This document shows, piece by piece, positions 6,953 to 58,980 of a DNA stretch of 64,000 nucleotides. A model generated the notes under the pieces. It was not told the DNA's origin. It searched no databases and saw nothing but the letters and a program-made list of their open reading frames with translations. How positions within the stretch are numbered: the stretch's first letter is position 1; every line of letters begins with the position of its first letter. Both the position numbers and the translations under genes were made by a program. Source of the stretch: Pirellulales bacterium (GTDB lineage Bacteria > Planctomycetota > Planctomycetia > Pirellulales > DATAWG01); NCBI GenBank assembly GCA_038210495.1, contig JBBQWR010000007.1, positions 1 through 64,000 on the forward strand, given 5' to 3'.

Positions 6953-6980
6953 AGCGGGGAGCGTAAGCTCCCTGTCCCCG
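6953..6980. repeat. REP-like palindromic element GAGCGGGGAGCGTAAGCTCCCTGTCCCC (hairpin GGGAGC-GTAA-GCTCCC)
   Basis: Lies 13 nt after the stop codon. Other family members at 15039-15068, 19808-19835, 40705-40730 and 58953-58980. Confidence 0.6.
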
Positions 6981-7112
6981 ACGCAATCTCCTTCTCACGC
7001 GCATTCGTGTTCGAAGGTTCGCCGCAATCGTTTTCCGCCCGACTTCGGCGTCCATTCCCCTTGCCCTGGGCTAGTTTGTTGTGCCCCTTCGGGGCATAAG
7101 CAATGGCGAAAC

Positions 7113-8837
7113 CTACTTTACCGCCACCGGCAACCGATACACCGCATACGAAGGGTTCTCATATTCCGCCTTGGCATTCCATCGCGGCATGTCCGGCAAT
7201 TGTTGCACGATCGCATAGTGCGCACGATATTGACTCGCCAACTCGTTGAGGCGGGCCGGCGTCAATTGCCCCAGCGATTCGCGCCATAGCGTTGGCGGCA
7301 GATCGGGCGACAGACCGTGAATATCGCTCAGCCGCTGAGCCCATTGTTTGATGCTCGCCGCGTCCTGCGGGATGTCTTTCCAGTTCACCACTTCGGCGCG
7401 CTCGGCGTGCCAGCGGAGCGTCGCCGAGAGCCGCGGCGTGAAAAATACCGCGTCCGGCGGCGTGTTGTTTTTGATCCACTCGCATGCTTTCAGCCAATCG
7501 TCGTAATTCATATTTTTGTCCGACCGCGGCACAACCGGCGCGGCGTTGTTTGCAAGCAGCGAAATCGGCAGATGCTGCGTTTGAAAGCCCAAGTCGCCGA
7601 GAACGATCAGCGCGAGCCCTGCGACCCAATAGTGTGCGACGAGCAAGCCGGATTGTCGGGGGCCAATGCGGGCTTGCCCAGCAGCGCCGCCTGTAATCTC
7701 GCTTGACGAAGCACTGCTGGACAAGCCAGTCGTGGCGCCCCATCCTATTTGCGCGAGCCACCACAAGCCCACGAGCGACACGCCCATGGGAATCAGCACA
7801 TCGGTCATGCGGAACCAATAGAATCGCAACAGCGCCGCGGCAATGTCGGGCGACATGTACGACAATCCCACGAGCGCATATCCGGCCAACGTCAGGAGCA
7901 ACGAAGCGCTCGCGAACCATCGCAACCGTCGCTGGGCCGGATCGCTCGGCGCGGCGGTCACCATCGTGAGCCACAGCCCGCAAAGCAATAGATGCCGGCT
8001 GGGAAATCCTTCTCGGAATTTGTCGGCCGATAGATGATGCGGCAGTCGCTTCAGATAAACGTCATTCGCAAGCCGAACCGTCTCCGCATCGACTCCGCGG
8101 TTGAGCGAGAGCGCGAACCACAGCCCTGGCAAAGCCAGTAAGAATCCAGCTGCGAGTCCCGGCGCGATCTTGCGGAGCGGCGGACGAGCATCGCCTGCTC
8201 CGAGCCACGCCACGACCGCGGCCAGCGTCGACCAGCCGCCGACGATGACATGCAGCGAACTGGCCAAGCCGAGAAAGATCCACGCTCGGTTCCACCGCTC
8301 GCGCAGGATCGCTTCCAAAGCCAGAAACACCAGCGCATACGAAAAGCCCTTGGCTTCGATTCCCCCGATGACCCACTCGCCGGCCATGTGGGCATTTTCG
8401 TTAAGCAGAACAAACAAGCCGGCGGTCAACACGGCAAACCACGCTCTGGGTAGCACGACCCAGCTAAGCCGCCGCCAAGTCCAGGCCAGCAGGGCCCAAG
8501 TGACGAGCCGCCCCACCCAGGCCACTTGCTCGAGCGGGAGCCATTTGATCAGCCAGCCGAACGTCCAATAAAATACCTGATGGGCATCGGCCGTATTGAC
8601 GAAAAAGTCGTTCGCGCACCAAGCCGGATTCCAATAATGCTTGGCCTTGGACAAATAGTGACATTCGTTGACATCCGGCACGGGCCAGGCGCCGTGCAAC
8701 GCAAACACGCCAAAGATCAACACAACCTCGGCCGCGGCCAACCAAATCCGCCCGGCGGATGAGACTCGGGCCGGCTGCGAAGCGGAGAGAACGTCATTCA
8801 TGCGGGCGGCGCCGGTTTCGACCAGGAGATTGTGCAA
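7113..8837 (-). CDS. Large polytopic membrane protein, possibly a GT-C-fold glycosyltransferase (ArnT/PMT-like)
   Basis: ~12 predicted hydrophobic helices, an acidic first-loop motif (DVNECHY) and a ~170-aa C-terminal soluble domain. The start codon is uncertain; an internal Met at ~8801 is possible. Confidence 0.5.
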   Translation of the reverse strand: MHNLLVETGAARMNDVLSASQPARVSSAGRIWLAAAEVVLIFGVFALHGAWPVPDVNECHYLSKAKHYWNPAWCANDFFVNTADAHQVFYWTFGWLIKWLPLEQVAWVGRLVTWALLAWTWRRLSWVVLPRAWFAVLTAGLFVLLNENAHMAGEWVIGGIEAKGFSYALVFLALEAILRERWNRAWIFLGLASSLHVIVGGWSTLAAVVAWLGAGDARPPLRKIAPGLAAGFLLALPGLWFALSLNRGVDAETVRLANDVYLKRLPHHLSADKFREGFPSRHLLLCGLWLTMVTAAPSDPAQRRLRWFASASLLLTLAGYALVGLSYMSPDIAAALLRFYWFRMTDVLIPMGVSLVGLWWLAQIGWGATTGLSSSASSSEITGGAAGQARIGPRQSGLLVAHYWVAGLALIVLGDLGFQTQHLPISLLANNAAPVVPRSDKNMNYDDWLKACEWIKNNTPPDAVFFTPRLSATLRWHAERAEVVNWKDIPQDAASIKQWAQRLSDIHGLSPDLPPTLWRESLGQLTPARLNELASQYRAHYAIVQQLPDMPRWNAKAEYENPSYAVYRLPVAVK

Positions 8838-9162
8838 AATTGCTTAAGAAGTCCTCACAAAACCACCTCGGAGAAGGATACAATCCCAAGTCTTGCTCCG
8901 CGGACTGCGCCAAATGGGGACAGCTCTCGGCGGTTTTGCGAGCAGTTCTAATCGCTAGAGCCTAATCGAGCACCGCGTCAGTGAACAGGCCGACGATGCT
9001 TCCGCAATGGGGGCGATCTCTTGGCGCGAGTGTGTCGGTGTCGCGGGAATTATCGGGCCGTGTCTTGCACGCCCCGGCGCCAAAGCATCCAATGTCGCTC
9101 GGCCCTATGTTTGGGCAAGGCTATAATCGGATTCATCGCGTTGGGCCACCAGGAACTTCGGC

Positions 9163-10596
9163 TTGAAAAAGAGATTGCGATCCGGGTTGCTCGCTTTGGG
9201 ATTGGTTGTCGCCTGCTCGAATGCGGCCGGCGCGGCGGACGGAGAACGGCTGGATTTACCGATCTGGTCCGGCGGACCGTTTGTCCTGATGCTGTTGGGA
9301 ATCGCAGTTCTTCCCCTCGCGGCGCCGCATTTCTGGGAGCGGAATCGCAATAAGGCGATCTTCTCGGCTCTGATGGCTGCGCCTGTCGTTGTTGCCCTGT
9401 TGGCGCTGGGCGGAGGCGCCAAGTCACCGGCCAACATCTTCGAACGGCCGGGCGCCCAGGCGCTACTGCATGCATCGCAAGATTATCTGTCCTTCATTAT
9501 CCTGCTGGCTTCGCTGTACACGATCTCCGGCGGAATCGTGTTGTCCGGCGATATTCGAGCCAAGCCGCTGACGAACGTGCTGATTTTGGCGATCGGCGCC
9601 GCGCTGGCCAACGTCATTGGAACGACCGGGGCGAGCATGCTACTGATTCGGCCGCTGCTGCAAATCAACAGCGAGCGCCGTAACACGCGGCATTTGCCCG
9701 TGTTCTTCATCTATGTCGTCGGCAATCTCGGCGGACTGCTGACGCCGCTTGGCGACCCACCGCTGCTGCTCGGGTTTTTGCATGGAATCCGTTTTACATG
9801 GACGCTATCGCTCTGGCCTCATTGGCTTTTGGCGAATGGGATCGTGCTAACGATTTTTGCGATTTGGGACTCGATCGCTTATCGGCGCGAGAGCCCCGAG
9901 GCTATTCGCTTGGACAACATCCGGATCGAGCCGATTCGAGTAAGAGGACTTTTGAACGTGCCGCTGCTCGCCGGCATTCTGCTCGCCGTCGGTTTTCAAT
10001 CGGCCGAGTTGGCCGAAGGCGCGAGAGCTTGGGTTGGCCGGTTCGTGCCGTGTCCGAATTTAACGCTACGATTCCCTTGGGGCGACCTCGCGATGATCGC
10101 GATGGCCGGTTTATCGCTAGGTTTCACGCCGTCGGCGTTGCGGAAGTCCAATGCGTTTACGTGGAAGGCGATCGTCGAGGTGGCGGTCCTGTTCGCCGGC
10201 ATCTTCTTGACGATGGTTCCCGCGCTGGGCTGGATAGCGCAGCATGGCGACCGATTCGGCGTGACCAAACCGTGGCAATATTTTTGGCTGACCGGCGGCC
10301 TGTCGTCGGTTTTGGATAACGCGCCAACCTATTTGACGTTTGCCACGTTGGCGGCTGGCCCCCACGATTTTGCCTGGCTTATGACGAACAAGCCGTTGGT
10401 TCTAGCGGCGATCAGCACCGGGGCCGTGTTCATGGGAGCCGTTTCCTACATCGGCAACGGCCCCAATTTCATGGTCAAAGCGATTGCCGACGAGTCTGGT
10501 CTCAAAACACCGTCATTCTTTGGCTACTTGACGTATTCGGGACTCATTCTAATTCCGACGTTTATCGTCGTGACGCTCGTCTTCTTTGTGAAGTAA
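9163..10596 (+). CDS. Ion transporter of the ArsB/NhaD/CitMHS permease superfamily, with an N-terminal signal-like segment
   Basis: 477 aa with ~12 TM segments. Internal repeat with a GDPPLLLGF-type motif typical of NhaD/ArsB-like permeases. Confidence 0.6.
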
Positions 10597-11052
10597 ACGA
10601 CTCTTACTACGTCCACCGGTAGTCGAAATGGCATCCACCGATGGAATTCAGCAGGCAAAGCGCGAACAGGTTCAGCAGGCTCAAAAGGCAGAACTGCTTG
10701 AGAACCTAGCAATGGATGCCGCAAGGACCGGCAATCGTCGAAAATCGATGGCGGATGTCCATTAGAAAAACCACTATCAACAATGCATTAAAATCAGTCC
10801 TTTTAATACTTTGGACGGCAGTGCAAGCCGCCATATCCGGCCGCGCATTTCGCTCCTGGCACATGACTTTCTTTTGCCCGTAGCCTTGCTCGCATGTACT
10901 CGTGTGCGGCGGGCGACGAATCAGGTCATCGATGGCTTGGCTGTCGAAGGCGGGACTAAACGATCTCTGCCCGCTACGGCGGAACAGAGAGCGACGCGAT
11001 ACAGTGATCTCAAGTGAACTGACTTCAAATCAAAGCATAAGGGCTGGCGACT

Positions 11053-11406
11053 ATGAAAATGATCGTGGCGATTATCCGCCCAGAAAGATTGGACGCTGTG
11101 ATTGCGGCGTTGGACGAACGCGATGTACATCTGATGACCGTGAGCGATGTTCGAGGCTGCGGCCGGCAGCGAGGTTTTACCGAAACGTATCGCGGCGCCG
11201 AATATAAAACGCGACTGCTCCAGAAAATCAAACTCGAGATTGCCGTGAACGAGCAGTTCGTGGCGCCGACGATGGACGCCATCGTCACGGCGTCTCGCTC
11301 CGATGGCGGCGGCGCGGTCGGCGACGGCAAAATCTTCGTGTTCTCGCTGGACGACTGCATTCGGATTCGCACCGGCGAACAAGGAATGGTGGCGATCGGG
11401 CCGTGA
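11053..11406 (+). CDS. glnB: Nitrogen regulatory protein P-II (GlnB/GlnK family)
   Basis: GCGRQRGFTETYRGAEYKTRLLQKIKLEIAV...GDGKIFVF closely matches canonical P-II (GFGRQKGHTELYRGAEY...GDGKIFV). The T-loop Tyr is present. Confidence 0.85.
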   Translation: MKMIVAIIRPERLDAVIAALDERDVHLMTVSDVRGCGRQRGFTETYRGAEYKTRLLQKIKLEIAVNEQFVAPTMDAIVTASRSDGGGAVGDGKIFVFSLDDCIRIRTGEQGMVAIGP

Positions 11407-11422
11407 TCGAGATTGCGATCAC

Positions 11423-11518
11423 CGTAGGTCAGGTATCCTGCCTGACGCACGGTGTTCTCATCTTACCGAGTGGTTCGATCATCTAACCTGGTTGTCAGGC
11501 AGGATGCCTGACCTACGT
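11423..11518. terminator. Bidirectional terminator candidate: inverted repeat CGTAGGTCAGGTATCCTGCCTGAC / GTCAGGCAGGATGCCTGACCTACG, each arm itself a GTCAGGCA-N5-TGCCTGAC palindrome
   Basis: ~24-bp arms separated by ~45 nt between convergent glnB (+) and the ABC permease (-). Confidence 0.5.
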
Positions 11519-13147
11519 TCGGCGATGCGAGACAAATGCTGCCCCCGCCAGGGTCAGCCCGAGCGCGCCGGTCACGAGCAGAATGCACAGACCGGCCAGT
11601 TCGTTTTGAATGTTGAAGTGCAACAGTTGGGAGATGCGCACGCCGAGCGTCATCACTCCCGGTGGCACGACGAGGATCGTGGCCGACAATTCCCCGATTC
11701 CAATAATCACCGCAGCTAACCAAGCCCAGGCGATCGCCTGGCAGCGCATCGGCAAGACCACGGCGAAAAATCGACGCCCGGCGCTGGCGCCGTCCAACGC
11801 CGCGACGTCGAGCAGGTCTTGGGGCACGGTTCGGAAGACGTGCCAAAGTAGCAGGATGGCGATCGGCAGTCCGCGAATCGCCTGCGCGATGGCCACGACG
11901 GCGATCGTGCGGTCGTAGAGAAAATTCAAAAGCGGCAGAGAGCGATCGTTAAAAAGCTCGATCAGCCAACCTCCCACCAGAGGTCCCGGAATAGCCATCC
12001 CCGCCACCGCGACAAGCAACGCCGCCTGGGCCATCAAGCCGCTGCGCCGAGCTAACCAACCAAGCGGCGTGGCGATCATCAAGACCAGGACGCCAGCCGT
12101 CGTGGCGATCGTCAGCGACCAGCCGATTTCGCGGTGATATCGCAGCGCGCTGCCCGCGACAATTTCCCAACATCGGCCTGCCGACCAACTACGCAGATAT
12201 CCACCAACGCTCGGTGCGACGGTCATCCCCGCTTTGCAAATCAAATTCAGTAGCGGCACACCCACCACCGCCAACCCAATGGCCACCACTAATATGCCCA
12301 GCGGCCAGCGAGCCCGGCCTAGCCGATACACCAGCGGTGGACGAGCCGTCCACTGCGGCCGCCAACTGGCGATGGCGCTACAGAGCCATGCGCCGCATGC
12401 AATCAAGCATCCGGTGAGAGCCACGCCAATCAGCGTCGGCGGAGGAGTTTGTCCCGGCTCGGCCAAGAGCGCGAACTGCGTGTAAACCTCCTCGGCATAG
12501 GTCCGCAGTCGTGTGGCGCCGACCTGAAATAAATCGGTCACGGTCATATCGGTGGCGACACCGATCGCGACCCAGATCGCCGCCAGACCAGTTGCCGGCA
12601 GAGCGTGCGGCAGCGTCACGCGCCACAGCACTTGCCCGGGCGACCCATCGAGCAGCGCCATCTCCTCGAGCTCCGGTTCTACGAATCGGACCACCAATCC
12701 CACGATAAACGCAACCCAGGGGATCGCGGCCAGTCCATGCACCCAAATCGCGCCGGCCCAGCCTTCGAGCAGCCCCGGCTCATAGGGCCCGGCTGTGAAC
12801 AAGGTATACCAGCCCGACATGCCAAATCCGGCTTGCCATCCGGCGGCTTGAAGATAAAGCGGCATGACCATCAAGCTGGCTAACAATCCGGCCACGAGCG
12901 TGCGAAACGGAAGGTCAGTTCGAAACAGCGCGAGTCCCAGAAGCACACCAACCAGCAGGCCGATCGCCAGCGTTCCGGCGACAAGAAACAGCGTGTTCTC
13001 AACGAGCGACCAGCTTCGAGCATCGGCTGAGAGTCTGGCGATAAGCAGCGGAGCGGCGGCGACAACGACGTAGGTCAGGCCAGTGGCTTGACGAGTTGCC
13101 ACGCGATGCCAGAATTTGAGTAAACACATCGTGGCGAAGCGAAGCAT
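11513..13147 (-). CDS. ABC transporter permease with two fused transmembrane domains (iron(III)/thiamine FbpB-like type)
   Basis: 544 aa. Two repeated ABC-TMD units with EAA-like loops (e.g. LLDVAALDGASAGRRFFAVVLP). No cognate ATPase or binding protein lies adjacent in the window. Confidence 0.7.
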   Translation of the reverse strand: MLRFATMCLLKFWHRVATRQATGLTYVVVAAAPLLIARLSADARSWSLVENTLFLVAGTLAIGLLVGVLLGLALFRTDLPFRTLVAGLLASLMVMPLYLQAAGWQAGFGMSGWYTLFTAGPYEPGLLEGWAGAIWVHGLAAIPWVAFIVGLVVRFVEPELEEMALLDGSPGQVLWRVTLPHALPATGLAAIWVAIGVATDMTVTDLFQVGATRLRTYAEEVYTQFALLAEPGQTPPPTLIGVALTGCLIACGAWLCSAIASWRPQWTARPPLVYRLGRARWPLGILVVAIGLAVVGVPLLNLICKAGMTVAPSVGGYLRSWSAGRCWEIVAGSALRYHREIGWSLTIATTAGVLVLMIATPLGWLARRSGLMAQAALLVAVAGMAIPGPLVGGWLIELFNDRSLPLLNFLYDRTIAVVAIAQAIRGLPIAILLLWHVFRTVPQDLLDVAALDGASAGRRFFAVVLPMRCQAIAWAWLAAVIIGIGELSATILVVPPGVMTLGVRISQLLHFNIQNELAGLCILLVTGALGLTLAGAAFVSHRRT

Positions 13148-13377
13148 CCCGGAGGGATGCCAGACGGTAGCCGGCGGTAAGGCCGTACGCGGCCGACACC
13201 GCCGGTTTGGCGATAGCGCGAGCTATTCGACCCCGGCAGGGGCCGCAGAATTGCGCTAACAGGGGGCCGGTTGTCTGCGACCCCTGCCGGGGTCCATTCA
13301 TTCGTTGAGACGTGTAAACCGGCGGTGTCGGCCTAAAGGCCTCTGCCGCCGGCTACCATCTGGCATCCCTCCGGGAT
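13145..13377. repeat. ~233-bp nested imperfect palindrome (33-bp terminal inverted repeats plus two inner stem pairs); MITE-like or structured RNA
   Basis: CATCCCGGAGGGATGCCAGACGGTAGCCGGCGG (13145-13177) is the reverse complement of 13345-13377 with 1 mismatch. Inner pairs: GGCCGACACCGCCGGTTT with AAACCGGCGGTGTCGGCC, and GACCCCGGCAGGGGCCGCAG with CTGCGACCCCTGCCGGGGTC. Confidence 0.6.
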
Positions 13378-13527
13378 GCGTTTCCGATCGTCAAGTCACA
13401 CCGGAAAGTTACCTAATTCGACAGCGCACTTTCGCTGACCCGTCGCTGAATTCGTGAGAATTCAGATTCCTGCGGCGGACAATATCTCGGAATTCTCACG
13501 AATTCCGCTACGAAATGCACGATAGTG

Positions 13528-14931
13528 CTAATACTGGTCCCCGCCACCGAGTTTTTCTTCAATCTTGTCCGCTTGCCACGCGATGGCGGTGAGGACTTGT
13601 GAGAAGAGCGGGCCGGTGAGCGAATCGGCCATCACGCTCCCTTGCAGGGTAACCATCTCTCGATCGCCGACTTTCTCGAACGCGAACGCCCCGTGGACCA
13701 GCTTCGAGTTGTATCGCAAGAGGGCTTGGGCGTTCTCCTCGCTTGCCACGCCACAGGTCGAGCGGAACGAGACGACCGCGTGTCCCCCTTCGTCGTGCTG
13801 ACCAAACGCGATCGTCACCGTTTGTTTGCGCAGCGCGCCGACGGGCACCGTTACTTGCCAACTGTCGCCGCTCTCGTCGAGCTTATAACTGCCGGCCGAG
13901 ATAACGCCGCGAACCAGTTGCCGCGGATCGGTCGGCGTGGAAAGATCGAGATCGTCGAACGACGGAAGCCCGGCGCCGGCCGTGGACGCCGTCGCGGCGG
14001 CAGCGGCAGTTTGCGGCGGCGCGGGTTGCGGCGCGTAGGGCTGCTGCGGCGCCTGTTGTGGATACGAAGTCTGCGGCGTTGCGCCTGCGGCCATTGCATC
14101 GCGGATCATACCGGGCATCATCATGCCAAAACCGGCGCCGAAGCCCATTCCCATCGGGCCATTGGCGCCGCCGCCCCCCTGCTCCGCCATCTTGGCCATG
14201 CTTTGGGCGGCCTGAAATTTCATAAAGGCGTTGAGATCACCCACGGCCCCCATCGAGCTCCGCGAGTCGATCGCTTGCTGGACTTCATCGGGCGGCGTGA
14301 TCGCGTTAATGAAGAAATCGACCAGCTCCAAGCCATACTTGGCGAAGTCCGCAGTGACTTTAGCCCGCGTGCCCGAGGCGATTTGCTCGTAGTGGGTCGG
14401 CATGTCGAGAAGGCTGAGGCCCGAGGCGCCCAGCATGTCGGCCATTCGGGACACGATCAAATCGCGGAGAAACGACGTCACGGCATCGGTCGTGTATTTG
14501 CCTTGCGTGCCCACTAGCGTGTTGAGCAGGACCGCGCTATCGGCGACCCGCAACGAATACTTTCCGAACGAGCGAAGCCGGACCATGCCGAAATCCTTGT
14601 CGCGAAATACGATCGGCTGCGGCGTGCCCCATTTTTGGTCGACGAACGTCTGCTTGCCGACGAAATAAACCGATGCCTGGAACGGCGACTTTTCCCAGGG
14701 GATCGTCAATATCCGCGTGAGAATCGGCACATTAGCCGTGGTCAGCGTGTGCCGGCCGGGCGGAAAGCTGTCGAGCGCCTTGCCGTCGCGGAAGAAGACT
14801 CCCTCCTGGTGTTCTTGCACGATGAGTTGGGCGCCGTACTTGATGTCGGCGGAGCCTTCTTGGGGAATCCGCTGAACCAGCGTTTGGTTCGACTCGTCGA
14901 AAAATTGGATGACTTCGAGCCGAAGGCCCAT
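13528..14931 (-). CDS. SPFH/band-7 domain protein with a Gln/Pro/Ala-rich linker and a C-terminal YbjN-like domain
   Basis: The N-terminal ~250 aa resemble SPFH (Band_7_1 type: [26 protein letters not shown]...). A low-complexity linker ([23 protein letters not shown]) follows. The C-terminal ~130 aa resemble the YbjN/putative sensory transduction regulator fold. Confidence 0.6.
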
Positions 14932-15038
14932 ATGCGTGCATTCCTGTGAGAATTTTTGCCGTGGCGCCGGTGGGATGGCAGCCGGCGGTCGGGCGGCGGT
15001 TTTGTTTTCGCTTGTTGTGTGTCGGTTTCGTTGCGTCT

Positions 15039-15068
15039 GGGACAGGGAGCTTACGCTCCCCGCTCGCC
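15039..15068. repeat. REP-like element GGGACAGGGAGCTTACGCTCCCCGCTCGCC (reverse orientation of the 6953 family)
   Basis: Lies 8 nt downstream of the stop codon (on the minus strand) of the 15076..15834 gene. Confidence 0.6.
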
Positions 15069-15075
15069 TATGAGG

Positions 15076-15834
15076 TTATTCGAGCCCTTTGAGTAGCTCG
15101 GCGCGCTGGTCGACTCCGCGGTCAATTTCGTCCAGGATTTGGTTCAGCCGAGGCAGCATCGTGGCAGGATCGGGTGGACCGGCTTCGGTCGCGACCGGTG
15201 TCGCTGAGATCGGCGCCGCGGGATCGGGCGAGGCGGGCGTGCCGGTCAAATCGTGCGGCGGCAAATCGGGCGGCGCGGCGGTTTGCACAGGTCCGCGCTC
15301 CGGCGCGCCGGCGAGCCGTTCGATCGATGAGGCTAAATCCTCGACGTGTCCCATCAATCCCATGTCGTGCTCGTAAACGCGGTCCAAAAGCGTTTCGTTC
15401 ACCCGGACCAAGTCGAACACTCCACTGTATCCTTGCCAGCCGCCGCGAATCCGAGCGATGACGCGATCGATCTTGGCCCGCAAGTGGTCGTATTGCGTCA
15501 GCAGTTCGAGGTGTCCCGCGTTGGCCAATATTGAACCGACCGTTTCCAGAGATCGTTTGCTTTGATCGAGCCGATCGGCGAGCCACGATCGCTGAAGCGA
15601 ATCGCTGTCGCGGCGATATTCTTTTTCGAGATAGCCGCGAAAGCCGGGGATATGCCGCAGGATCGATTCGAGGGGGCCACGATGTTCGGTGTGTTGGCGG
15701 GGTTCGGGCACGGTTTGGACTCCAACGTAATTGAGCGGGGAAGCGGCGGCGCGCGATTTTATCAGGGATTCGCTTGCGACAACGTAATCTTGGCGGCGAT
15801 ATTGTCGGCGGCCGTGTTGCCGCCGCGCCGTCAT
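15076..15834 (-). CDS. Hypothetical protein (253 aa), Arg-rich N-terminus and Pro/Asp-rich C-terminal region
   Basis: Start chosen at MTARRQ (ATG at 15834). No recognisable domain. Lies directly upstream of the SPFH gene on the same strand. Confidence 0.45.
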   Translation of the reverse strand: MTARRQHGRRQYRRQDYVVASESLIKSRAAASPLNYVGVQTVPEPRQHTEHRGPLESILRHIPGFRGYLEKEYRRDSDSLQRSWLADRLDQSKRSLETVGSILANAGHLELLTQYDHLRAKIDRVIARIRGGWQGYSGVFDLVRVNETLLDRVYEHDMGLMGHVEDLASSIERLAGAPERGPVQTAAPPDLPPHDLTGTPASPDPAAPISATPVATEAGPPDPATMLPRLNQILDEIDRGVDQRAELLKGLE

Positions 15835-16113
15835 AATACCAGGGTCTGCAATGCGGACGCAAACGGTGGCCCGCAGCGCAACTGCCGAGCCAGCAAACGG
15901 GTTAGGGGCGGCGCGAGCAAGCCGCTGGCGATGCCAGCAGATACCGCGACCCCCGTCGCGATTTTGCACGTCGATCGCCACTCAGCCGGTCTTGGCGTGC
16001 AAGGGTGTTCTCTGCTATAGTCCGCCCCGCTCCGGGTCTAGGAACTGGATTTGCCAGCCCGGCGCCCTCGTCTGACTCATCTCATCGACATTCCGAAACA
16101 GTTGCGACTTCCG

Positions 16114-16860
16114 ATGCGCACACCATACGGCACTGGCCGGCGGCTGATTTCGTTTTGCCTGCTGCTTGCGCTGATGGGCGGCTGCACCTGGGGCTCGAAG
16201 AATGGCGTACCGTGGTGGGGCACGAAGAAGCAAAAGGACGAAGCCGCCGCCGATCTCGATAAATATGGTCCGGTCGCGTTTCAGCGTATCGACGTCGTTA
16301 AGAAATACGGCGAGTACGCGGCCAAGGGGAGCGAGACTGAAAAACAGCAGGTCGCCTCGCGACTGGCCATCGATATTCAAACCGAGCAAGATCCGCTCGT
16401 GCGAATCCAAATCATCCGCACGCTGGCGGGTATTCCGAACGAGACGGCCGCTGGAGTGCTGGGGGCCGGCATCAAGGATCCGGATTCCGAAGTGCGGATC
16501 GCGGTCTGCGAAGCCTGGGGCAAACGAACCGGACACTCCAAATCGCCAGATGAACCCTCGGCCCGCATGTTGGCCGAGACATTGTCGAGCGACACGAACA
16601 TCGACGTGCGTCTGGCAGCCGCGAAAGCTCTTGGCGCGGCGAAGAACGATCCGCGAGCCGTCGGGGCGCTTGCCATCGCGCTCAAGGATCCCGATCCCGC
16701 GATGCAGCACCGATCGGTCGCTTCGCTGAAGCAGGTGTCGGGGCAGAATTTCGGCGACGACGTGCAGAAGTGGCAACAGTGGGCGACGACGGTTGCGCCG
16801 CCCAGCGCTGCGGCCGACACGCCGAGCATCGCCTCTCAGCCGCAGCCGGCGCCACGCTAG
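16114..16860 (+). CDS. Lipoprotein with HEAT/PBS-lyase-like repeats
   Basis: Signal peptide with lipobox (LLLALMGGC). Repeated ...DPDSEVRIAVCEAWGK / TNIDVRLAAAKALGAAKNDPRAVGALAIALKDPDPAMQHRSV HEAT-like units. Confidence 0.6.
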   Translation: MRTPYGTGRRLISFCLLLALMGGCTWGSKNGVPWWGTKKQKDEAAADLDKYGPVAFQRIDVVKKYGEYAAKGSETEKQQVASRLAIDIQTEQDPLVRIQIIRTLAGIPNETAAGVLGAGIKDPDSEVRIAVCEAWGKRTGHSKSPDEPSARMLAETLSSDTNIDVRLAAAKALGAAKNDPRAVGALAIALKDPDPAMQHRSVASLKQVSGQNFGDDVQKWQQWATTVAPPSAAADTPSIASQPQPAPR

Positions 16861-17250
16861 GCGACGAAATCAGCGGGCGCACTCGTACATAGCCGCGGCT
16901 ATGTATGGCCGGCAAAGTTTCTCCAGCCGGTCGCGCTTATCTTTCGTCCAACTTGAAGCCGATCGTGGAAATCCGCGAGCTTCTTCCGACCGGCGTTGTT
17001 TCGCCGATTTCGCGGGGCGGTCGTTCCGTTTGTGAAGGGACCGGCGAGTTGAATGCACTCATCCGGTTCATTTTCCGATATGACTACTCGTGGCCATTGC
17101 GGCACGAAAGTGGCGGACGCCTTGTCGCGATGGGTCACTCGCTTTTAACGTTGGGCGATCCCGACGCAACGCATATTTATCGCTGTGACGTGGATAATTT
17201 CGTCCAGCCAGCCGCCCTCTGCATTACGCCAACTCACGGACATCACTTCG

Positions 17251-18708
17251 ATGCAGCGCTTCATTTTAATTTTTGTCGCGTCCGGGTTGATTACATTCGG
17301 TGCTTCTCGATCTCGGGCCGACGACGATCGAGAACCCGCTGAACCTATCGCCCAGAACGAACCGGCGCTGAACGAACCGGCGCTGAACGAACCGGCTCAA
17401 AACGAATCGGCTCAGCTCGACGCCGGTCCCGAGGCGGCCAGCCACTGCGTTACGATCCTAGGCGATGCTCTACAGTCGCTCGCTCTCGAAAAATGGATCG
17501 CGGCCATTGCGGATTGCAAATCCATCGTCGAGCAGTTGGACTTGCAATCAGTTCGAGCCCAATTGAACGATCGCAGCGCCAAAGCCGTTGGCGTCTGGCG
17601 TCTGGCGAGCGCCGAGCGGGCAAAGCTCGTCGTCAAACCAAACTTGCCCATCGCGCCGGAGCTTGCCGCTCTGCGCGACAAAATCCATAAGGCAGTGGCC
17701 AACTACGAGCAGCGGCCATTGAACGCCGCGCAGCAATCTCCTTGGGAGGTCATGCACCGCATCGTGGCCTACGGGATCGGAACCGAAATTCGCCGCGATG
17801 GCCCGACCGGTGACAAAGTCAACGCCATCGGCTGGCTGCTGTGGGGCAATCGCGCGGCGAGCGAGCCGCTGATGGTCGTGTCCGCGGGCCGCCCCCTCTG
17901 CCGCGTCGGACCAGGGCTACAAGGTCATCCGGGGCAATTCCTCGGTATGCTCGCGCAGTCGCAAGTCAGCATTCTCACTCCATTCCAACTCGACGGCCAC
18001 TCGTTCACCGTCGCCGATCTCGTGGAGCAAGAAAAGGCCGACTGCAGCACGCACATCGAATTGACCTTCAAACTGATCGCCCTCTCGTACTATTTGCCGA
18101 GCAACGAAACCTGGATCGCCAAAAATGGCGAGCGATGGTCGATTTCGCGGCTGGTGCAGGAAGAAATTCAACAGCCGCTGCGGACCGGCGCCTGCGGCGG
18201 AACTCATCGGCTGTTTAGCCTAAGCAATGCCTACCGTTATCGCGCAAAGCAAGGCTTACCGATCGACGGTGAATTCAAGCGGGCCGAGAAGTACGTCCGC
18301 GACTACCATCGTTACACGCTGGGCGCGCTGCAAAACCCGGACGGCAGCTTCAGCACCGAATGGTTCACCAAGCCGGCGAACGCGGACGACCCCGCGCGGA
18401 AGATTCAAACGACCGGCCACATGATGGAATGGCTCGCGCAGAGCCTGCCGGACTCCGAGCTGCGCGATCCGCGCGCGATCAAGACCATCGATTTTCTGGC
18501 GACGCAACTGTCGCAGGACCCGGTGAAGGATTGGAGCGTTGGCCCGCTCGGCCACGCCCTGCATGCCCTGATTATTTACGATCAGCGAGCGTTCGGCGAA
18601 GCCAATCCAGCGATCGCATCTTCCGTCGCCAAGGCGAATCGACCGGCCAACATGGCAACGCGGCCCCTGTATCCGCCGGTCCCGCGGAGCGGCGTCGACC
18701 AATGGTAG
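17251..18708 (+). CDS. Secreted hypothetical protein with an N-terminal NEPAL pentapeptide repeat
   Basis: Signal peptide MQRFILIFVASGLITFGASRSRA. A 15-bp tandem repeat at 17355-17415 encodes NEPALNEPALNEPAQNESAQ. The remainder has no confident domain assignment. Confidence 0.5.
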   Translation: MQRFILIFVASGLITFGASRSRADDDREPAEPIAQNEPALNEPALNEPAQNESAQLDAGPEAASHCVTILGDALQSLALEKWIAAIADCKSIVEQLDLQSVRAQLNDRSAKAVGVWRLASAERAKLVVKPNLPIAPELAALRDKIHKAVANYEQRPLNAAQQSPWEVMHRIVAYGIGTEIRRDGPTGDKVNAIGWLLWGNRAASEPLMVVSAGRPLCRVGPGLQGHPGQFLGMLAQSQVSILTPFQLDGHSFTVADLVEQEKADCSTHIELTFKLIALSYYLPSNETWIAKNGERWSISRLVQEEIQQPLRTGACGGTHRLFSLSNAYRYRAKQGLPIDGEFKRAEKYVRDYHRYTLGALQNPDGSFSTEWFTKPANADDPARKIQTTGHMMEWLAQSLPDSELRDPRAIKTIDFLATQLSQDPVKDWSVGPLGHALHALIIYDQRAFGEANPAIASSVAKANRPANMATRPLYPPVPRSGVDQW

Positions 18709-18720
18709 TCGGCCGGCGCC

Positions 18721-19737
18721 TCATTCGACTATCCATGTATCGCCGGAGTTGAGCAGTCCGGTCAAATCGCCGGCGCCTCGTTTCGCTCGCGCATCGTCGA
18801 TCTGGGCGTTGACCATCTGGTCGTACATCGGTCGTTCGACATCGCGGAAAACGCCGATCGGCTCGGGAAATTGCGGATACCGCATGCGGCTCAAAAAATA
18901 CGCGAGGCTCGGCTCGGTCAGCTTCTCGTCGTGAATCAACAGATCGTCCTCGGTGATTCCCTTGCCGAGGGTTACGACCTCCAGTTGCATTCCCGTCTGT
19001 CGGATTCCCTTGTCGCGATTCTTGCCGAAGACCAGCGGCTTGCCGTGCTCTAGCTCGATCGTTTGATCCATCTTGGTCAGCCGATCGGTCGCCCAATCGA
19101 ACTCGCCGTCGTTGAACACGTTACAGTTTTGATAAACCTCGACGAACGATGTGCCGCGATGCTCGGCGGCCCGCTTGAGGATCATCGACAAATGTTTGAT
19201 ATTCACGTCGATCGAGCGAGCGACGAACGTGGCTTCGCAGCCGATTGCGACCGATAGCGGGTGGATCGGGTTGTCGACCGAGCCGGCCGGCGTGCTCTTG
19301 GTCACTTTGCCCAGCGGCGAAGTCGGCGAGTATTGCCCCTTGGTCAGGCCGTAGATCCGATTGTTGAACAACACGATCTTGATGTCCAAATTCCGGCGAA
19401 TCGCGTGCATCAGATGGTTGCCGCCGATTGATAGCCCGTCGCCATCGCCTGTGATGACCCAGACCATCAGTTCGGGCCGAGTCACCTTGAGCCCCGTCGC
19501 GACCGCCGGCGCCCGGCCGTGAATCGAATGAATGCCGTAAGTATTCATGTAGTAGGGAAACCGGCTGGAGCAACCGATGCCCGAGACGAACACCATTCTC
19601 TCGGGCGGAACGCCGAGCGACGGCAGCACTTTTTTCATCTGGGCCAAAATCGAATAATCCCCGCAACCGGGGCACCAGCGAATGTCTTGGTCGCTGGCAA
19701 AGTCTTGGGGCGTGAGAACGGGAAGTGTCGTGGACAT
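18721..19737 (-). CDS. korB: 2-oxoglutarate:ferredoxin oxidoreductase subunit beta (TPP-binding)
   Basis: MSTTLPVLTPQDF... start; CPGCGDYSIL and GIGCSSRFPYYM...GDGDGLSIGGNH are TPP-binding motifs of OFOR beta subunits. The ATG at 19737 is preceded by a heptamer array rather than a Shine-Dalgarno sequence. Confidence 0.85.
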   Translation of the reverse strand: MSTTLPVLTPQDFASDQDIRWCPGCGDYSILAQMKKVLPSLGVPPERMVFVSGIGCSSRFPYYMNTYGIHSIHGRAPAVATGLKVTRPELMVWVITGDGDGLSIGGNHLMHAIRRNLDIKIVLFNNRIYGLTKGQYSPTSPLGKVTKSTPAGSVDNPIHPLSVAIGCEATFVARSIDVNIKHLSMILKRAAEHRGTSFVEVYQNCNVFNDGEFDWATDRLTKMDQTIELEHGKPLVFGKNRDKGIRQTGMQLEVVTLGKGITEDDLLIHDEKLTEPSLAYFLSRMRYPQFPEPIGVFRDVERPMYDQMVNAQIDDARAKRGAGDLTGLLNSGDTWIVE

Positions 19738-19746
19738 GGGGAAGTA

Positions 19747-19776
19747 GTCGGGAGTAGGGAGACGGGAGTCGGGAGT
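19747..19776. repeat. Heptamer array GTCGGGA/GTAGGGA/GACGGGA (4 units), 10 nt 5' of the korB start
   Basis: gtcgggagtagggagacgggagtcgggagt; the same units recur at 23430-23452 and 23527-23554. Confidence 0.6.
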
Positions 19777-19807
19777 TACATAGCTGCGGCATTCTGCCGC
19801 GTAGTCG

Positions 19808-19835
19808 AGCGGGGGGGCGTAAGCCCCCTGTCCCA
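19808..19835. repeat. REP-like element GAGCGGGGGGGCGTAAGCCCCCTGTCCC
   Basis: Variant of the 6953 family, located between korA and korB. Confidence 0.55.
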
Positions 19836-19857
19836 TCGGTCAACACTAATCAGACAC

Positions 19858-23409: not shown

Positions 23410-23429
23410 GGTTTTGCCTCTGGCAAAAA

Positions 23430-25007: not shown

Positions 25008-25029
25008 GTGGCGGGTGGCGGGTGGCGAG
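25008..25029. repeat. Heptamer array GTGGCGG x2 + GTGGCGA, directly abutting the AKR start codon (sense strand TCGCCACCCGCCACCCGCCAC-G-ATG)
   Basis: Same heptamer family as the array at 58988-59051. Confidence 0.6.
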
Positions 25030-40658: not shown

Positions 40659-40704
40659 ACTTAATCAACTTATTCTTTCGCCCGTCCTAACCGCGCGCCG
40701 CGGT

Positions 40705-44242: not shown

Positions 44243-44327
44243 CAAAGGGGACGGGAGGCTGGTGGCATGGGAGTTGCAAAGTTAGAGCGGCGACTGGTTA
44301 GTCCTTTTAATCCCATCCGAACCTTGC

Positions 44328-47395: not shown

Positions 47396-47421
47396 GAACA
47401 CAAACGAACGATCGCGCGAAC

Positions 47422-55063: not shown

Positions 55064-56452
55064 GTGGCTGGAAAAGCTTGGTCAGGAGTTTTTAACGAGG
55101 CGACGGACCGCCGAGTGGAGCAGTTTACCGAAAGCATTAGCTTCGACCGGCGACTGTATGCGCACGACATCCAAGGTTCGATCGCCCACGCCCGAATGCT
55201 GGCCTCGGTCAGCCTGCTGACGGCCGACGAATGCCAGCAAATTGAGCAGGGACTGTGTGAAATCCGCCAGCTAATTGAGCAAGGCGATTTTAAGTTCACG
55301 ATCGAGTTGGAAGACATTCACCTGCACATCGAGCGGGCGCTGATTGAGCGGCTGGGCGATGTCGGACGAAAGCTCCACACGGCCCGCAGTCGCAACGATC
55401 AAGTCGCGACCGATCTTCGCCTTTGGCAGCGCGAGGCGATCGACCAGCTCGACCAGCGGCTGATCGCGCTTCAACAAGCATTTGTGGGCCGCGCGGACCA
55501 AGACGAAGGCTGCATCCTGCCGGGCTACACGCACCTCCAGCGCGCCCAGCCGGTTCTAGCGGCGCACTATTGGCTTGCGTATTGCGAAAAACTGGAGCGC
55601 GATCGGCAAAGGTTGGCCGACTGCCGGCGACGAACGAATGTGTTGCCGTTGGGGTCGGCGGCGCTGGCTGGTACTTCGCTGCCGATCGACCGGGATTTTG
55701 TCGCGCGGGAGCTCGGATTCGATTCGGTCGCGGCCAACAGTCTGGATGCCACAAGCGACCGCGATTTCGTGCTCGAGTTTGCGTTCGCGCTAAGTCAGAT
55801 CGCCGTGCATCTGAGTGGCTGGGCAGAGGAGTGGATTCTGTGGTCGACCGCGGAATTCAATTTCCTGAAACTGCCGGAGGCGTTTTGCACGGGGTCGTCG
55901 ATCATGCCTCAAAAAGTCAATCCCGACGTGCTGGAACTCACGCGTGGCAAGACGGCTCGGGTGATCGGCAATTTGCAGGCCCTGCTGGTGCTCGTGAAGG
56001 GTTTGCCGCTGGCCTACAACCGAGATTTGCAGGAAGACAAGCAGCGGGTGTTCGATTCGTTCGACACGGTGGCCGCCTGTTTGGAATTGGCCGCGCCGCT
56101 TGTGGCCGAGACAAAGCTGAATCGAACGGCCATCACCGAGCGATTGGACCGCGGCTATTTGGACGCGACGACGTTGATGGAAGAGTTTATTCGCCGCGGG
56201 GTTCCGCAGCGCACGGCCCACGAGCTTGTCGGCCGGCTAGTCCGGAAAGCCATGGATCGCGGAGTTCGATTGTCGGATTTGGCGGCTAGCGAGTTTCACG
56301 AAGCTCATCCGCTGTTAGACGGCAGCTTCGAGGACTCACTGGGCGTCGAACGGGCGATCGCGCGGTTTGTCAGCTATGGCTCGACGGCCCCGTCGGAAGT
56401 GCGGCGACAGGTCGAGCAGTGGAGAAAACGGCTGGGAAAGCGTGAAGCGTGA
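55064..56452 (+). CDS. argH: Argininosuccinate lyase
   Basis: Proposed GTG start at 55064: (V)[34 protein letters not shown] aligns with the E. coli ArgH N-terminus [45 protein letters not shown] and [12 protein letters not shown] are fumarate-lyase signatures. The ORF-track start at 54683 would overlap mutL by 73 nt. Confidence 0.85.
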
Positions 56453-56500
56453 AGCGTGAAGCGTGAAGCGTGAAGCGTGGGGCGTGGGGCGTGGGGCGTG
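56440..56500. repeat. Heptanucleotide tandem array: GTGAAGC x5 then GTGGGGC x3; contains the argH stop codon and lies ~50 nt upstream of the next gene
   Basis: gcgtgaagcgtgaagcgtgaagcgtgaagcgtgaagcgtggggcgtggggcgtggggcgtg, read directly from the sequence. Confidence 0.85.
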
Positions 56501-56550
56501 AAAAAGGCGGGTGTTCGGCGAAGACGGCTGGCGCAAGAGGGGATGCAATT

Positions 56551-58911
56551 ATGAATCGCAACATACAGACGGGGCCTATGTTTAATTACCATTGGTTTGG
56601 TATTTGCGCGATTTCGGTCGGCGCCTTTTCGATGGCGAGCTTCGTCGTGGGACAGGAGCCGCCGGAGAAGAAGATGGCCGAAAAGAAAGCGGCGGGACCG
56701 GCTGGTCCTGTCGCGGCGCCACCGACGGCGCCCGCGGCTAAAGCTCCAGGCGCCAAAGCTGTCGCTGAGGCGCCCCCGTCGCCGGTGTTTAATCCCGAAA
56801 GCCCGGCGGTCGAAAATATCCTGGCGGCCAAGCCGAAGTCGCCCCGGGATGTGATGCAGGCCGTGATTTCGCTTGGCCAACTGGATCGACCGGATTTGGC
56901 CAAGCAAATGCTCGATCAACTGTTGGCCGCGAAGCTAGACGCCGCGGCCCTCGCCGACCTCAATCATCAGTTCGGCAGCGCGACGTTCATCCAGATGCTG
57001 ACCAGCGCGCCCTTGGCGCCGCAAGGACGCCAGTTAGCCGACGTGGTATTCGCCGCCGGCGCCGCCGAAAGCCGAAATCCCGAGCGGCTCGCTCTGCAGA
57101 TCAAGCAGCTCAGCGACCCGTCGTCCGATGTTCAGGCGAGCGCGCTGGAGGCACTGGCCGGCGGCGGATCGTATGCGGCCGCCGCGCTGTTTGCGGCTCT
57201 CGCAAGTCCCACGCCGCCGGCCAGAGCGGCGCTCGCCCGTCGGGCCTTGATCGAAATCGGGGACGACGCCGTGCGACCGCTCTTGGCGGCTCTCGAAGCC
57301 CGCGACGCTGCGACTCAGCTCAAGGCTCTCGATGGGCTGTCCGAACTCGACGTACCGACCGACGCGGTTCCGTACCTATTGGCTTGCGCCTTCTCGGGGA
57401 CCAGTTCCGAAGAAGTCCGGCAAGCCGCCACGCGCGTGTTGGCCAAAGCTTATCGAGGAACCCCGACGAAGTCCGACGCGGCGATCATCCTCTCGCGGGC
57501 GGCCCGCGAGTTCTTGGAGCACGATCATCCGCTCATCGCCGACGAAGGCGACAAAGTCTCTCTATGGCGGTGGGACGCCGTCGGCCATCGGCCGGTGATG
57601 GAGGCCTATCCGCCGCGGCAGGCCAGCACGGTGATCGCGGCCAAGCTCGCGAGCGGGTTGCAGCAAGTCGCCCCCGACGCTGCCGCTCGAGGGCAATTGT
57701 ATTTGATCAGTCTGCTTGAATCCGGAGTGGTTCGCGCGGGCCTCGACGCGCCGCTGCCCACCGGCGCCGGTAGCGAATTTGAATTGGCCGCGAAAATGGG
57801 AGTCGAGGCGGTCAACGACGCGCTCGCCCAGGCGATGGCCACCGGTCATCCGGCTGCGGCTCGGGGGGCCGCGGACGTGTTGGCCGCGATCGGCGATGCA
57901 AAATTGCTGACCCGCGACGGCGCCAGCGTCAGCCCCCTGGTCGAAGCTCTGCGCCAACCAGATCGCCGGCTGCGGATGGCGGCTACCGCGGCGATCATGA
58001 AGTTCAAGCCCTCTGCGCCATTCCCGGGCGCGTCGCTATTGACGGATTCGGTGGCCGACATGGCTCGCTCGACGGGCAAGCGCGGCGCCGCCATCGCGTT
58101 CTCCTCGATCGAGCCCCTTCAAACGCTGGCCGGCATGACCAATGCCCTCGGCTACGAGACGATGACGGCAACCAGCGGACGGCAGCTTGTGGCAGCGGCC
58201 TCGCAGGCGGCCGATACTGAGGTGATCTTAGTCAGCGGGCGAATCGATCATTCGCCCGCGTTCGACACGGTTCAGGCGCTACTCCGAGACCCGCGCACGG
58301 CGGATGCTCCGATTTGCGTCATGGCCGAACTCGATCAAATCGAGTGGCTGGGTCAGAAATACGAAGGCTTTCCGCATGTGTTCGTCGAACTGCGGCCGAT
58401 CTCGCTCGATCAGATGAAGCGGATAATTCTCAAGGCCACGGACCTTGCCGGCGATCGAATTCCGCCGGCGAACGTGCGGGCGCAGCATGTCGTTCAGGCG
58501 CTCGAATGGCTGGCTCAGTTGGCCGAGGCGCCGCCGGCGGTAGCCGATGCGCGGCGATACGAACCGATCGCCGAACGCGCGCTCTTTCGTCCGGCGACGA
58601 CCATCGCGGCGGCAAAAGTCATGACCCGACTCGGGACGCCGTCATCGCAATTGTCACTGGTGGACCTGGCCAGCGTCGCGACACAGCCGATCGAGTCGCG
58701 GCAGATCGCGGCCACGGCGTTTCGCGACAGCGTCCGCCACTTCGGTTTGCGGCTGAGTCCATCGGAAATTCTCCGCCAGTATCAACGTTACAACGAAAGC
58801 GCGCAGCTCGATGCGGCGACGCAAAAGGTTTTGTCCCATGTGTTGGATACGCTCGAACTGTCGGCGAAAAAGCAAGCGGCGAACGTAAGCCGTCCGCCGC
58901 GCGCGCCGTGA
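56551..58911 (+). CDS. Secreted HEAT/ARM-repeat protein (hypothetical, 787 aa)
   Basis: Start at MNRNIQTGPMFNYHWFGICAISVGAFSMASFVVGQE (signal-peptide-like) with a GAGGGGA purine tract upstream. Ala/Pro-rich linker, then alpha-helical repeat architecture (repeated ...ALEAL.../...AAIGDAKLL... units). Confidence 0.6.
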   Translation: MNRNIQTGPMFNYHWFGICAISVGAFSMASFVVGQEPPEKKMAEKKAAGPAGPVAAPPTAPAAKAPGAKAVAEAPPSPVFNPESPAVENILAAKPKSPRDVMQAVISLGQLDRPDLAKQMLDQLLAAKLDAAALADLNHQFGSATFIQMLTSAPLAPQGRQLADVVFAAGAAESRNPERLALQIKQLSDPSSDVQASALEALAGGGSYAAAALFAALASPTPPARAALARRALIEIGDDAVRPLLAALEARDAATQLKALDGLSELDVPTDAVPYLLACAFSGTSSEEVRQAATRVLAKAYRGTPTKSDAAIILSRAAREFLEHDHPLIADEGDKVSLWRWDAVGHRPVMEAYPPRQASTVIAAKLASGLQQVAPDAAARGQLYLISLLESGVVRAGLDAPLPTGAGSEFELAAKMGVEAVNDALAQAMATGHPAAARGAADVLAAIGDAKLLTRDGASVSPLVEALRQPDRRLRMAATAAIMKFKPSAPFPGASLLTDSVADMARSTGKRGAAIAFSSIEPLQTLAGMTNALGYETMTATSGRQLVAAASQAADTEVILVSGRIDHSPAFDTVQALLRDPRTADAPICVMAELDQIEWLGQKYEGFPHVFVELRPISLDQMKRIILKATDLAGDRIPPANVRAQHVVQALEWLAQLAEAPPAVADARRYEPIAERALFRPATTIAAAKVMTRLGTPSSQLSLVDLASVATQPIESRQIAATAFRDSVRHFGLRLSPSEILRQYQRYNESAQLDAATQKVLSHVLDTLELSAKKQAANVSRPPRAP

Positions 58912-58952
58912 GGAATGCGACCCATGTACGTCGATCGTAGTGCTCGCGGTTA

Positions 58953-58980
58953 GGACAGGGGGCGAACTCCCCCGCTCGCC
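58953..58980. repeat. REP-like variant GGACAGGGGGCGAACTCCCCCGCTCGCC
   Basis: Reverse-orientation relative of the 6953 family. Lies 42 nt after the stop of the 56551 gene. Confidence 0.5.

Follow-up and report, generated by a model that had tools for sequence, protein, structure and literature searches.

A REP-type palindromic repeat family in a Pirellulales contig and its association with a class-3-like Y1 transposase

The first 64,000 nucleotides of contig JBBQWR010000007.1 from a Pirellulales bacterium (GenBank assembly GCA_038210495.1; this whole stretch is called the window below) carry five copies of a short palindrome, and these very probably represent a non-autonomous family of the repetitive extragenic palindrome (REP) type that is served by a class-3-like Y1 transposase. 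The full unit consists of GGC, GAGCG, a 6-bp stem enclosing a loop, and TGTCC, and it occupies 28-30 nt (nominally 29 nt). An earlier note on this DNA had proposed a REP family tied to a Y1 transposase (IS200/IS605-like, of the REP-associated tyrosine transposase or RAYT type) encoded elsewhere. This connection was borne out in other genomes, where inverted units were associated with a Y1 gene, encoding a protein of 180-190 aa, in at least eight independent loci (L008, L016, L022, L024, L026, L027, L055, and L063). By analogy, we infer that the family has been spread by a Y1 transposase of the class 3 type.

The exact 26-mer GAGCGGGGAGCGTAAGCTCCCTGTCC was found twice in the window, at 6952-6977 (+; copy 1) and 15040-15065 (-; copy 2), and a third match with two mismatches was located at 40705-40730 (+; copy 4). 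The chance expectation of the 26-mer was 0.00 in 100 dinucleotide-preserving shuffles, and that of the 16-nt hairpin core was 0.03 in shuffled sequence. The looser frame GAGCG-N12-22-TGTCC added the sites at 19807-19833 (+; copy 3) and 58953-58977 (-; copy 5). Every position of the window was also scored, with filters off, with the covariance model R1, which was built from 26 copies (alignment A1) all taken from other genomes. The scores were 53.7 bits for copy 2, 52.8 for copy 1, 44.4 for copy 3, 30.8 for copy 5, and 26.4 for copy 4, while the next-best match reached 14.9 bits. This drop indicated that the window holds exactly five copies. That match, at 38141-38158 (+) and reading AGGCGAGCG-N-TGTCTC and thus composed of foot and tail without the hairpin, had a score of 14.9 bits and an E-value of 0.29; it lies within a coding open reading frame (ORF; 37152-38321, -) and was set aside as probably a chance match. 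The shuffles and the model derived from other genomes therefore confirmed a five-copy repeat family in both orientations, as the earlier note had described it. The coordinates given there were correct to within 1-4 nt, and the conserved unit extends 3 nt (GGC) further in the 5' direction.

In two loci of one metagenome-assembled genome (MAG), L012 and L016, the copies had a common downstream sequence translating to ...WFLTWTTYATWLPGDARGFVS...; the gene in L016 was frameshifted, its two gene fragments amounting to more than one gene copy in the MAG, and L012 carried a remnant. An intact Y1_Tnp gene of 187 aa was present in L008 (854-1417, -). A REP unit followed 8 nt past the gene stop, and 55 nt upstream of the start stood an inverted copy with an internal deletion (CACAGGGAGCTTAC-TCGCC). 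Moreover, the DNA around four homologues (L022, L024, L026, and L027) was picked without reference to the motif, and the unit was present at the gene in all four. Inverted copies stood on both sides of the gene in L024. L022 carried an inverted pair upstream, the nearer copy of which ended 14 nt before the ATG, and in L027 (Urbifossiella) a copy abutted the ATG of the transposase gene. L026 had one copy just upstream of the gene and four downstream, three of them in tandem and spaced by 39 nt; altogether, the 20.9 kb around the gene held 16 copies. In L055 and L063, which are contigs recovered by the motif alone, the gene was bracketed by inverted copies. Both the '-> gene <-' and the '<- gene ->' layouts were seen. 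The whole collection comprised 203 copies in 149 loci (877 kb), with the gene in 11 loci, six of which had been fetched via the gene.

The repeats also appeared in gene calls. Several called proteins ended in REP-encoded tails, GERGASAPC from GGCGAGCGGGGGGCGTCAGCCCCCTGT and QGADAPRSP from its complement (standard code). In L026 (10537-10891 and 13570-14232), the transposase call P0051 was extended by about 115 aa across the four downstream REP copies, and the gene calls that run through REP copies or end in REP peptides include P0065, P0074, P0083, and P0114. Annotators should mask the 29-nt units as repeats of the REP type and not take them for terminators, small RNAs or parts of ORFs.

The layout around the gene bears on another origin of the palindromes, namely that they are solo left-end or right-end hairpins from an autonomous insertion sequence (IS) of the IS200/IS605 type. 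We consider this origin very unlikely. The nearest solved relatives of the protein by sequence are indeed IS200/IS605 TnpA, it has a Y...Q motif like that of IS200, and L016 has two gene fragments in one MAG; furthermore, Quentin et al. (2018, PMC6006769) place class 3 between IS and REPtron. However, the copies exceed the genes more than tenfold in motif-selected DNA, and an identical unit stands inverted on both sides of the gene, whereas IS200/IS605 ends differ from each other and are directly oriented. No tnpA remnants were found beside any of the five window copies by tblastn or by a six-frame profile search. Doublets and 39-nt tandem arrays, as in L026, are instead a trait of REPs and bacterial interspersed mosaic elements (BIMEs).

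The L008 protein passed the Pfam Y1_Tnp profile with 36.8 bits against a cutoff of 23; it reached 39 bits with NCBIfam REP_Tyr_transpos (cutoff 80), and its transpos_IS200 score was also below the cutoff. The search of 5.8 billion proteins returned 1,246 homologues, many of which were labelled 'REP element-mobilizing transposase RayT' by JGI; their sources include Fimbriiglobus, Urbifossiella, and Gemmataceae. Among 31-52 aligned homologues, 176-200 aa in length, the HuH motif had an invariant H108 with N107 and H110 nearly invariant. W148 and W149 were invariant and T150 nearly so, followed by E151 (WWTE); K129-x-Y131, Y170 and Q174 were also invariant or nearly so, and the N-terminal block WFLTWTTYGTWLPGDxRGFVS was strongly conserved. 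A profile search of PDB sequences returned only transposases of the IS200/IS605 type (2F4F, 2EC2, 2FYX, ISDra2, and IS608). The AlphaFold model had a predicted local distance difference test score (pLDDT) of 85.8 and a predicted TM-score (pTM) of 0.79, and Foldseek matched it to ISDra2 TnpA, IS608 TnpA, and E. coli TnpAREP with its REP hairpin (4ER8), with probability 1.00 and a TM-score of about 0.65 on the target. Judged by its conserved residues and predicted fold, the protein is a Y1/HUH transposase. Its motifs match those described for class 3, and we call it class-3-like.

To describe the family, statistics were taken from 191 distinct copies in loci outside the window. G-G-C at positions -3 to -1 was kept in 88-92% of them, and conservation was gone at -4 and beyond +1. 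The loop was GTCA in 85 copies, GTAA in 43, GTGA in 20, GTCG in 7, GCGA in 7, and GTTA in 4. What is constant in the loop is thus GTNA, and the most frequent version does not conform to GNRA. The GNRA-type loop, which the earlier note had regarded as a feature of the family, did not hold, given the predominance of GTCA and the AGTTCG loop of copy 5. In the 26 sequences of alignment A1, the foot GGCGAGCG and the tail TGTCC were invariant and the three basal G-C pairs did not vary. The three upper pairs changed on both sides of the stem (A-T and G-C in 9 and 15 sequences, A-T and G-C in 4 and 20, and one T-A), giving AGC/GCT, GAC/GTC, and GGC/GCC. Of the stem cells in A1, 98.8% were paired, compared with 43-62% when the 3' partners were slid. 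A tail resembling CGTC (CCCCGTCC) was found in one variant only, in L024.

The opposed positions of foot and tail are G-C, A/C, G.T, C-G, and G.T. The two G.T oppositions were retained in 25 of 26 sequences and had not drifted to G-C, so the two strands are not equivalent. This pattern points to a sequence-specific and strand-specific recognition of the unit rather than to helix stability.

Across the loci, inverted or tandem pairs within 150 nt were frequent: 40 pairs were tail-to-tail, with gaps of mostly 6-26 nt, 10 were head-to-head, with gaps of mostly 23-27 nt, and 9 were in tandem. Such frequent doublets are the habit of BIMEs and of REP doublets forming hairpins (REPINs). The unit might have formed one end of something longer, but this possibility was rejected, as its flanks were unconserved beyond -4 and +2 and the common flank of L001 and L018 was a local duplication in one genome. 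A stop codon as part of the element or its target, suggested by TAA|GGC in several copies, was also rejected; there was only a weak C/A preference at -6 to -4, with T at -6 in 16%, and 5 of the 191 copies abutted a stop exactly. A stop-to-stop ORF test of extragenic location and stop proximity in the 191 copies was confounded by spurious long ORFs at about 61% G+C, and the doublet geometry confounded orientation in the same test.

The five copies in the window differ in their state and neighbours. Copy 1 (6949-6977, +), which is the consensus GGCGAGCGGGGAGCGTAAGCTCCCTGTCC and an exact match, formed a predicted hairpin of -8.0 kcal/mol as single-stranded DNA and -20.3 kcal/mol as RNA. It lies 8 nt past the TAA (6938-6940) of a hemerythrin-domain gene (6158-6940, +), in the sense orientation to that gene, and 135 nt from the stop of a convergent DUF6798 gene (7113-8837, -), to which it is antisense. 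Copy 2 (15040-15068, -) has the same sequence as copy 1, and its hairpin was -8 kcal/mol as single-stranded DNA and -19.8 kcal/mol as RNA. It follows the TAA of the gene at 15076-15981 (-) by 7 nt and precedes the ATG of an SPFH/Band-7 gene (13528-14931, -) by 108 nt, in sense to both. The RNA fold z-scores of copies 1 and 2 were -3.7 and -4.5, respectively. Copy 3 (19804-19833, +; GTCGAGCGGGGGGGCGTAAGCCCCCTGTCC) has the compensated stem GGGGGC/GCCCCC and one extra G. It lies 24 nt from the nearest stop and is antisense to both of its neighbours, the alpha (19858-21999, -) and beta (18721-19737, -) genes of a 2-oxoacid:ferredoxin oxidoreductase, which are separated by a spacer of 120 nt; this spacer is almost certainly the interior of one operon. 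The alpha subunit was 100% identical to the protein P0121, and its closest named relatives, with 76-80% identity, are assigned to 'Pirellulales bacterium'.

Copy 4 (40702-40730, +; GGTGAGCGAGGCGCGTAAGCTCCCTGTCC), with two of its stem pairs broken, formed no stable hairpin and folded no better than shuffles. It is found in sense orientation 43 nt past the C-terminal remnant of an ISAzo13 transposase gene (40461-40658, +; 65 aa, DDE_Tnp_ISAZ013 family), the only owner of its flanking stop, and 117 nt upstream of a glucuronyl-esterase-like gene (40848-42203, +). Copy 5 (58953-58980, -; GGCGAGCGGGGGAGTTCGCCCCCTGTCC) has a 5-bp stem and a 6-nt loop. It follows the TGA of a HEAT-repeat gene (56470-58911, +) by 41 nt and precedes a sigma-54 activator gene (59062-60129, +) by 81 nt, antisense to both, and it adjoins a CTCGCCA heptamer array (58988-59051). 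Copies 1-3 look intact and copies 4 and 5 look decayed by mutation. The hairpin GGGAGC-GTAA-GCTCCC, which had been ascribed to every copy, is therefore not general, given the altered stem of copy 3, the two broken pairs of copy 4 and the loop of copy 5. All five copies are intergenic, between Pfam-supported genes, and for each of them the nearest stop is closer than the next start. The proximity to stop codons, claimed for four of the five copies within 8-45 nt, was thus correct, and the count was too low, since all five lie 7-43 nt from a stop.

A role as terminators had been suggested for these palindromes. No T-run followed any of the five copies in either orientation, and none of copies 1-3 was among the sites returned by a consensus terminator scan whose range, 6800-20000, included only these three. 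Because of the missing U-tract and the mixed orientation to genes, with two of the five (copies 3 and 5) antisense to both flanking genes and copy 3 inside an operon, such a role was not supported. In E. coli, REPs form a 3' hairpin that shields the upstream mRNA. Copies 1-3, with predicted RNA hairpins of -16 to -20 kcal/mol, could possibly stabilise mRNA, and protection of the upstream mRNA by a 3' hairpin is plausible for copies 1 and 2, although transposase-driven spread of the family does not need it.

These properties could also be read as those of a conserved structured RNA element, such as a 3'-UTR stabiliser, an attenuator or a protein-binding hairpin, that is selected as RNA and stands near transposases incidentally. 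The high RNA stability of copies 1 and 2, the covarying stem and the position close behind stops would all fit, as would the strand asymmetry, since the G.T oppositions become G.U pairs in the GAGCG...TGTCC sense only. We nevertheless regard an RNA element as unlikely. Copies 3 and 5 are antisense to both neighbours, and elsewhere the copies are most commonly arranged as inverted doublets, in which both strands are represented at each site. There was no Rfam match to the copies at the gathering threshold and no U-tract. Furthermore, the decayed copies 4 and 5 speak against purifying selection at the level of the site, and the repeated bracketing of the Y1 gene would be left unexplained.

A binding site of a host protein (nucleoid-associated, gyrase-type or an operator), or else a chance or compositional repeat, is extremely improbable. 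Classical E. coli REPs bind IHF, gyrase, and Pol I (PMC6006769), and the invariant foot and tail would suit a binding site. However, chance is excluded by the shuffles and the covariance model, and the copies are near stops, not promoters. The decayed copies and the variable presence at orthologous sites argue against an essential site, and the association with the transposase would again remain unexplained.

That variable presence was observed for copy 3, the unit of which was missing from the orthologous alpha-beta spacer of two related loci, L150 and L151 (83-86% protein identity). These spacers were too diverged to align, and the comparison therefore indicated variable presence and not a precise insertion. 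In L150 (4870-4935), the alpha-beta spacer carried two copies of another hairpin, CGGACGGGTC(TTC/AGA)GACCC(A/G)TCC, so a different REP-like family sits at the same intergenic spot. The orthologous spacer of L151 had GTTGTCC heptamers.

The mechanism that we propose for the REP-type family and its transposase follows, by analogy, those of IS608/ISDra2 TnpA and TnpAREP. While the DNA is transiently single-stranded, the enzyme would recognise the hairpin together with its asymmetric foot on one of the strands. The catalytic tyrosine would then cleave, and the DNA would be rejoined elsewhere. Binding, cleavage and rejoining of the palindrome on single-stranded DNA are thus predicted from the motifs and the modelled fold. 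Insertions would survive mostly in intergenic DNA just past stops, where harm is small. Harmless survival explains the stop-proximal position most simply, and a target preference is also possible. Effects on transcripts would be a by-product, not what keeps the family going.

Several observations weigh against this interpretation. The search for a RAYT gene, which the earlier note had recommended, succeeded in other Planctomycetia, where genes with bracketing units were found, and not in the 64-kb window, where tblastn and a profile search of the six-frame translation detected no Y1 transposase gene; we suppose, by analogy with the other genomes, that this genome encodes the transposase outside the window. 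The window copies are all singletons, while doublets dominate elsewhere, and the L150 and L151 spacers yielded no clean pair of empty and filled sites. In addition, the published class 3 Y-motif YV[VI][AENY]EQ was matched only as YV-x-x-Q, and the GT[AG]G (or CGTC) tag of classical REPs is lacking in this unit, which has the foot and tail described above.

The earlier note had considered the family genome-specific. The same 29-nt unit was instead found in four orders, on at least 120 metagenome contigs (in a scan with the loop left free), and as 191 distinct copies at loci other than this window. A genome scan with the pattern GAGCGGGGNNCGTAAGNNCCCTGTCC, one genome for each of 185,579 species, gave 21 sites in 13 assemblies, all Planctomycetota. 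The genera were Singulisphaera (two species), Planctomicrobium, Schlesneria, and Lacipirellula, and the other carriers were MAGs, one of them labelled 'Planctomyces sp.' and several assigned to Planctomycetaceae or Planctomycetota. Together with Urbifossiella, the carriers span the Planctomycetia orders Isosphaerales, Planctomycetales, Pirellulales, and Gemmatales. In a viral collection of 2.9 million contigs, the unit was found on one contig only (IMGVR_UViG_3300044654_000030). This contig has three copies within 4.5 kb (3036-7542) and may represent either the prophage of a planctomycete or a piece of chromosome that was misassigned.

The foot, the three basal G-C pairs, the GTNA loop and the tail, which would together make up the recognition sequence, are near-invariant, while the transposase is at about 55% identity. 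It is possible, though rather doubtful, that the unit and the class-3-type transposase form an ancient and mainly vertically inherited pair whose recognition sequence stayed near-invariant across four orders. If so, such conservation would imply that the two are held in a hard co-evolutionary lock or that they have a domesticated function in the host, and the pair would offer a tractable evolutionary intermediate between IS200/IS605 and classical REP-RAYT systems.

Other features were noticed in the window. A second palindromic family, TAGAG[C/T]CGCGCACGAAGTAAGCGCGG with the inverted partner GCTTACTTCGTGCGCGGCTCTA, was seen at 3472-3561 and 60127-60204. The partners are 39 and 27 nt apart and make up two intergenic inverted doublets resembling REPINs or miniature inverted-repeat transposable elements; at 60127, the sigma-54 activator gene has its stop in the TAG of this family. 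Heptamer tandem arrays occur at 19746-19776, 23429-23452, 23528-23558, 25008-25027, 35072-35130, 56438-56502, and 58988-59051, with the heptamers AGTCGGG, GTGGCGG, AATGACG, AAGCGTG, and CTCGCCA. At least the first and last of these arrays are in spacers upstream of genes, and two of the arrays abut REP copies 3 and 5. An apparently complete group II intron lies at about 42300-44246 (-). Rfam D1-D4-4 matched it with 110.7 bits at 44078-44218 and domain V/VI (RF00029) with 37.9 bits at 42305-42383, slightly below the gathering score; GUGCG stands near 44246, and the intron ORF (42395-43759) has RVT_1 and GIIM domains. A link between the palindromes and this intron, as a hairpin-targeting intron, was rejected, no copy being near the intron ends. 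Finally, an ORF of 2,887 aa (25249-33912, +) encodes TPR repeats, alpha-2-macroglobulin domains (MG2, bMG3, A2M, and A2M_BRD), and a YfiO-like region.

Among known systems, IS200/IS605 elements (IS608 and ISDra2) resemble the present one in the HUH/Y1 core, in the Y...Q motif and in the recognition of a hairpin and its flanking bases on one strand. They differ in that the window copies carry no gene and the flanks of the gene here are one unit in inverted arrangement. A TnpB partner was not present in the gene tables of the transposase loci examined.

The classical REP, BIME and REPIN-RAYT systems (TnpAREP 4ER8; Pseudomonas REPINs; Nunvar 2010; Bertels and Rainey 2011; Ton-Hoang 2012; Di Nocera 2013, PMC3733652) likewise comprise short extragenic palindromes in both orientations. 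They have tens to hundreds of copies, inverted doublets and a usually low-copy Y1 gene that is bracketed by them (REPtron), and the same habit was found here. A covarying stem with a conserved foot is also common to both, and the predicted fold of the transposase matches 4ER8. In sequence, however, the transposase is nearer to IS200 TnpA than to TnpAREP, and the unit is constant across four orders, whereas classical REP sequences usually vary between genera. Two GTAG-tagged REP families, 20 and 21, with tyrosine transposases have been reported in Rhodopirellula baltica (Di Nocera 2013, PMC3733652). GTAG-20 and GTAG-21 are other sequences, and their intragenic translations do not correspond to the present unit.

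The closest systems are those of class 3 TnpAY1 (Quentin et al., 2018, BMC Genomics 19:475, PMC6006769). Class 3 proteins are about 178 aa long, with a HuH motif NHVH (NH[VIL]H), W[TA], an IS200-like Y...Q, and extended N-terminal conservation, and they are found principally in Planctomycetes, Acidobacteria, and Proteobacteria, with Planctomyces limnophilus, Solibacter usitatus, and Legionella pneumophila as examples. Their genes are bordered by a number of short 'atypical secondary structures' that are also multi-copy elsewhere in the genome (PMC6006769). The supplementary listing of REPs identified by hand has elements of only three species and, in Table S1, gives CACGAGCCGGAAGCGTGAGCGACGGGT for Planctomyces limnophilus and CCGAGCCGCGACCGTAAGGGAGCGGA for Legionella (PMC6006769). 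The present system shares the protein of about 180 aa with HuH, W-T, Y...Q and the N-terminal block, the dominance of Planctomycetes, and the multi-copy flanking hairpins. The elements are alike in the (C)GAGC foot, the AGC-GTNA-G centre and overall length, as the P. limnophilus element and the copy 1 sequence show. Nevertheless, the stem here is a perfect and covarying one of 6 bp, while the published examples are interrupted and 'atypical'; the foot is GCGA(G) compared with the published CnGA, and the TGTCC tail is not described there. The exact unit is not in the supplements of Di Nocera 2013 or Quentin 2018, and no description of this unit and its four-order conservation was found in the literature searched. 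The kind of element is known, and no new category is called for; the family extends the sparsely documented class 3 REPtron-like systems with a searchable element, a covarying stem and an asymmetric conserved foot, and it provides a concrete substrate for studying DNA recognition by HUH enzymes intermediate between the IS200/IS605 and the REP-associated types.

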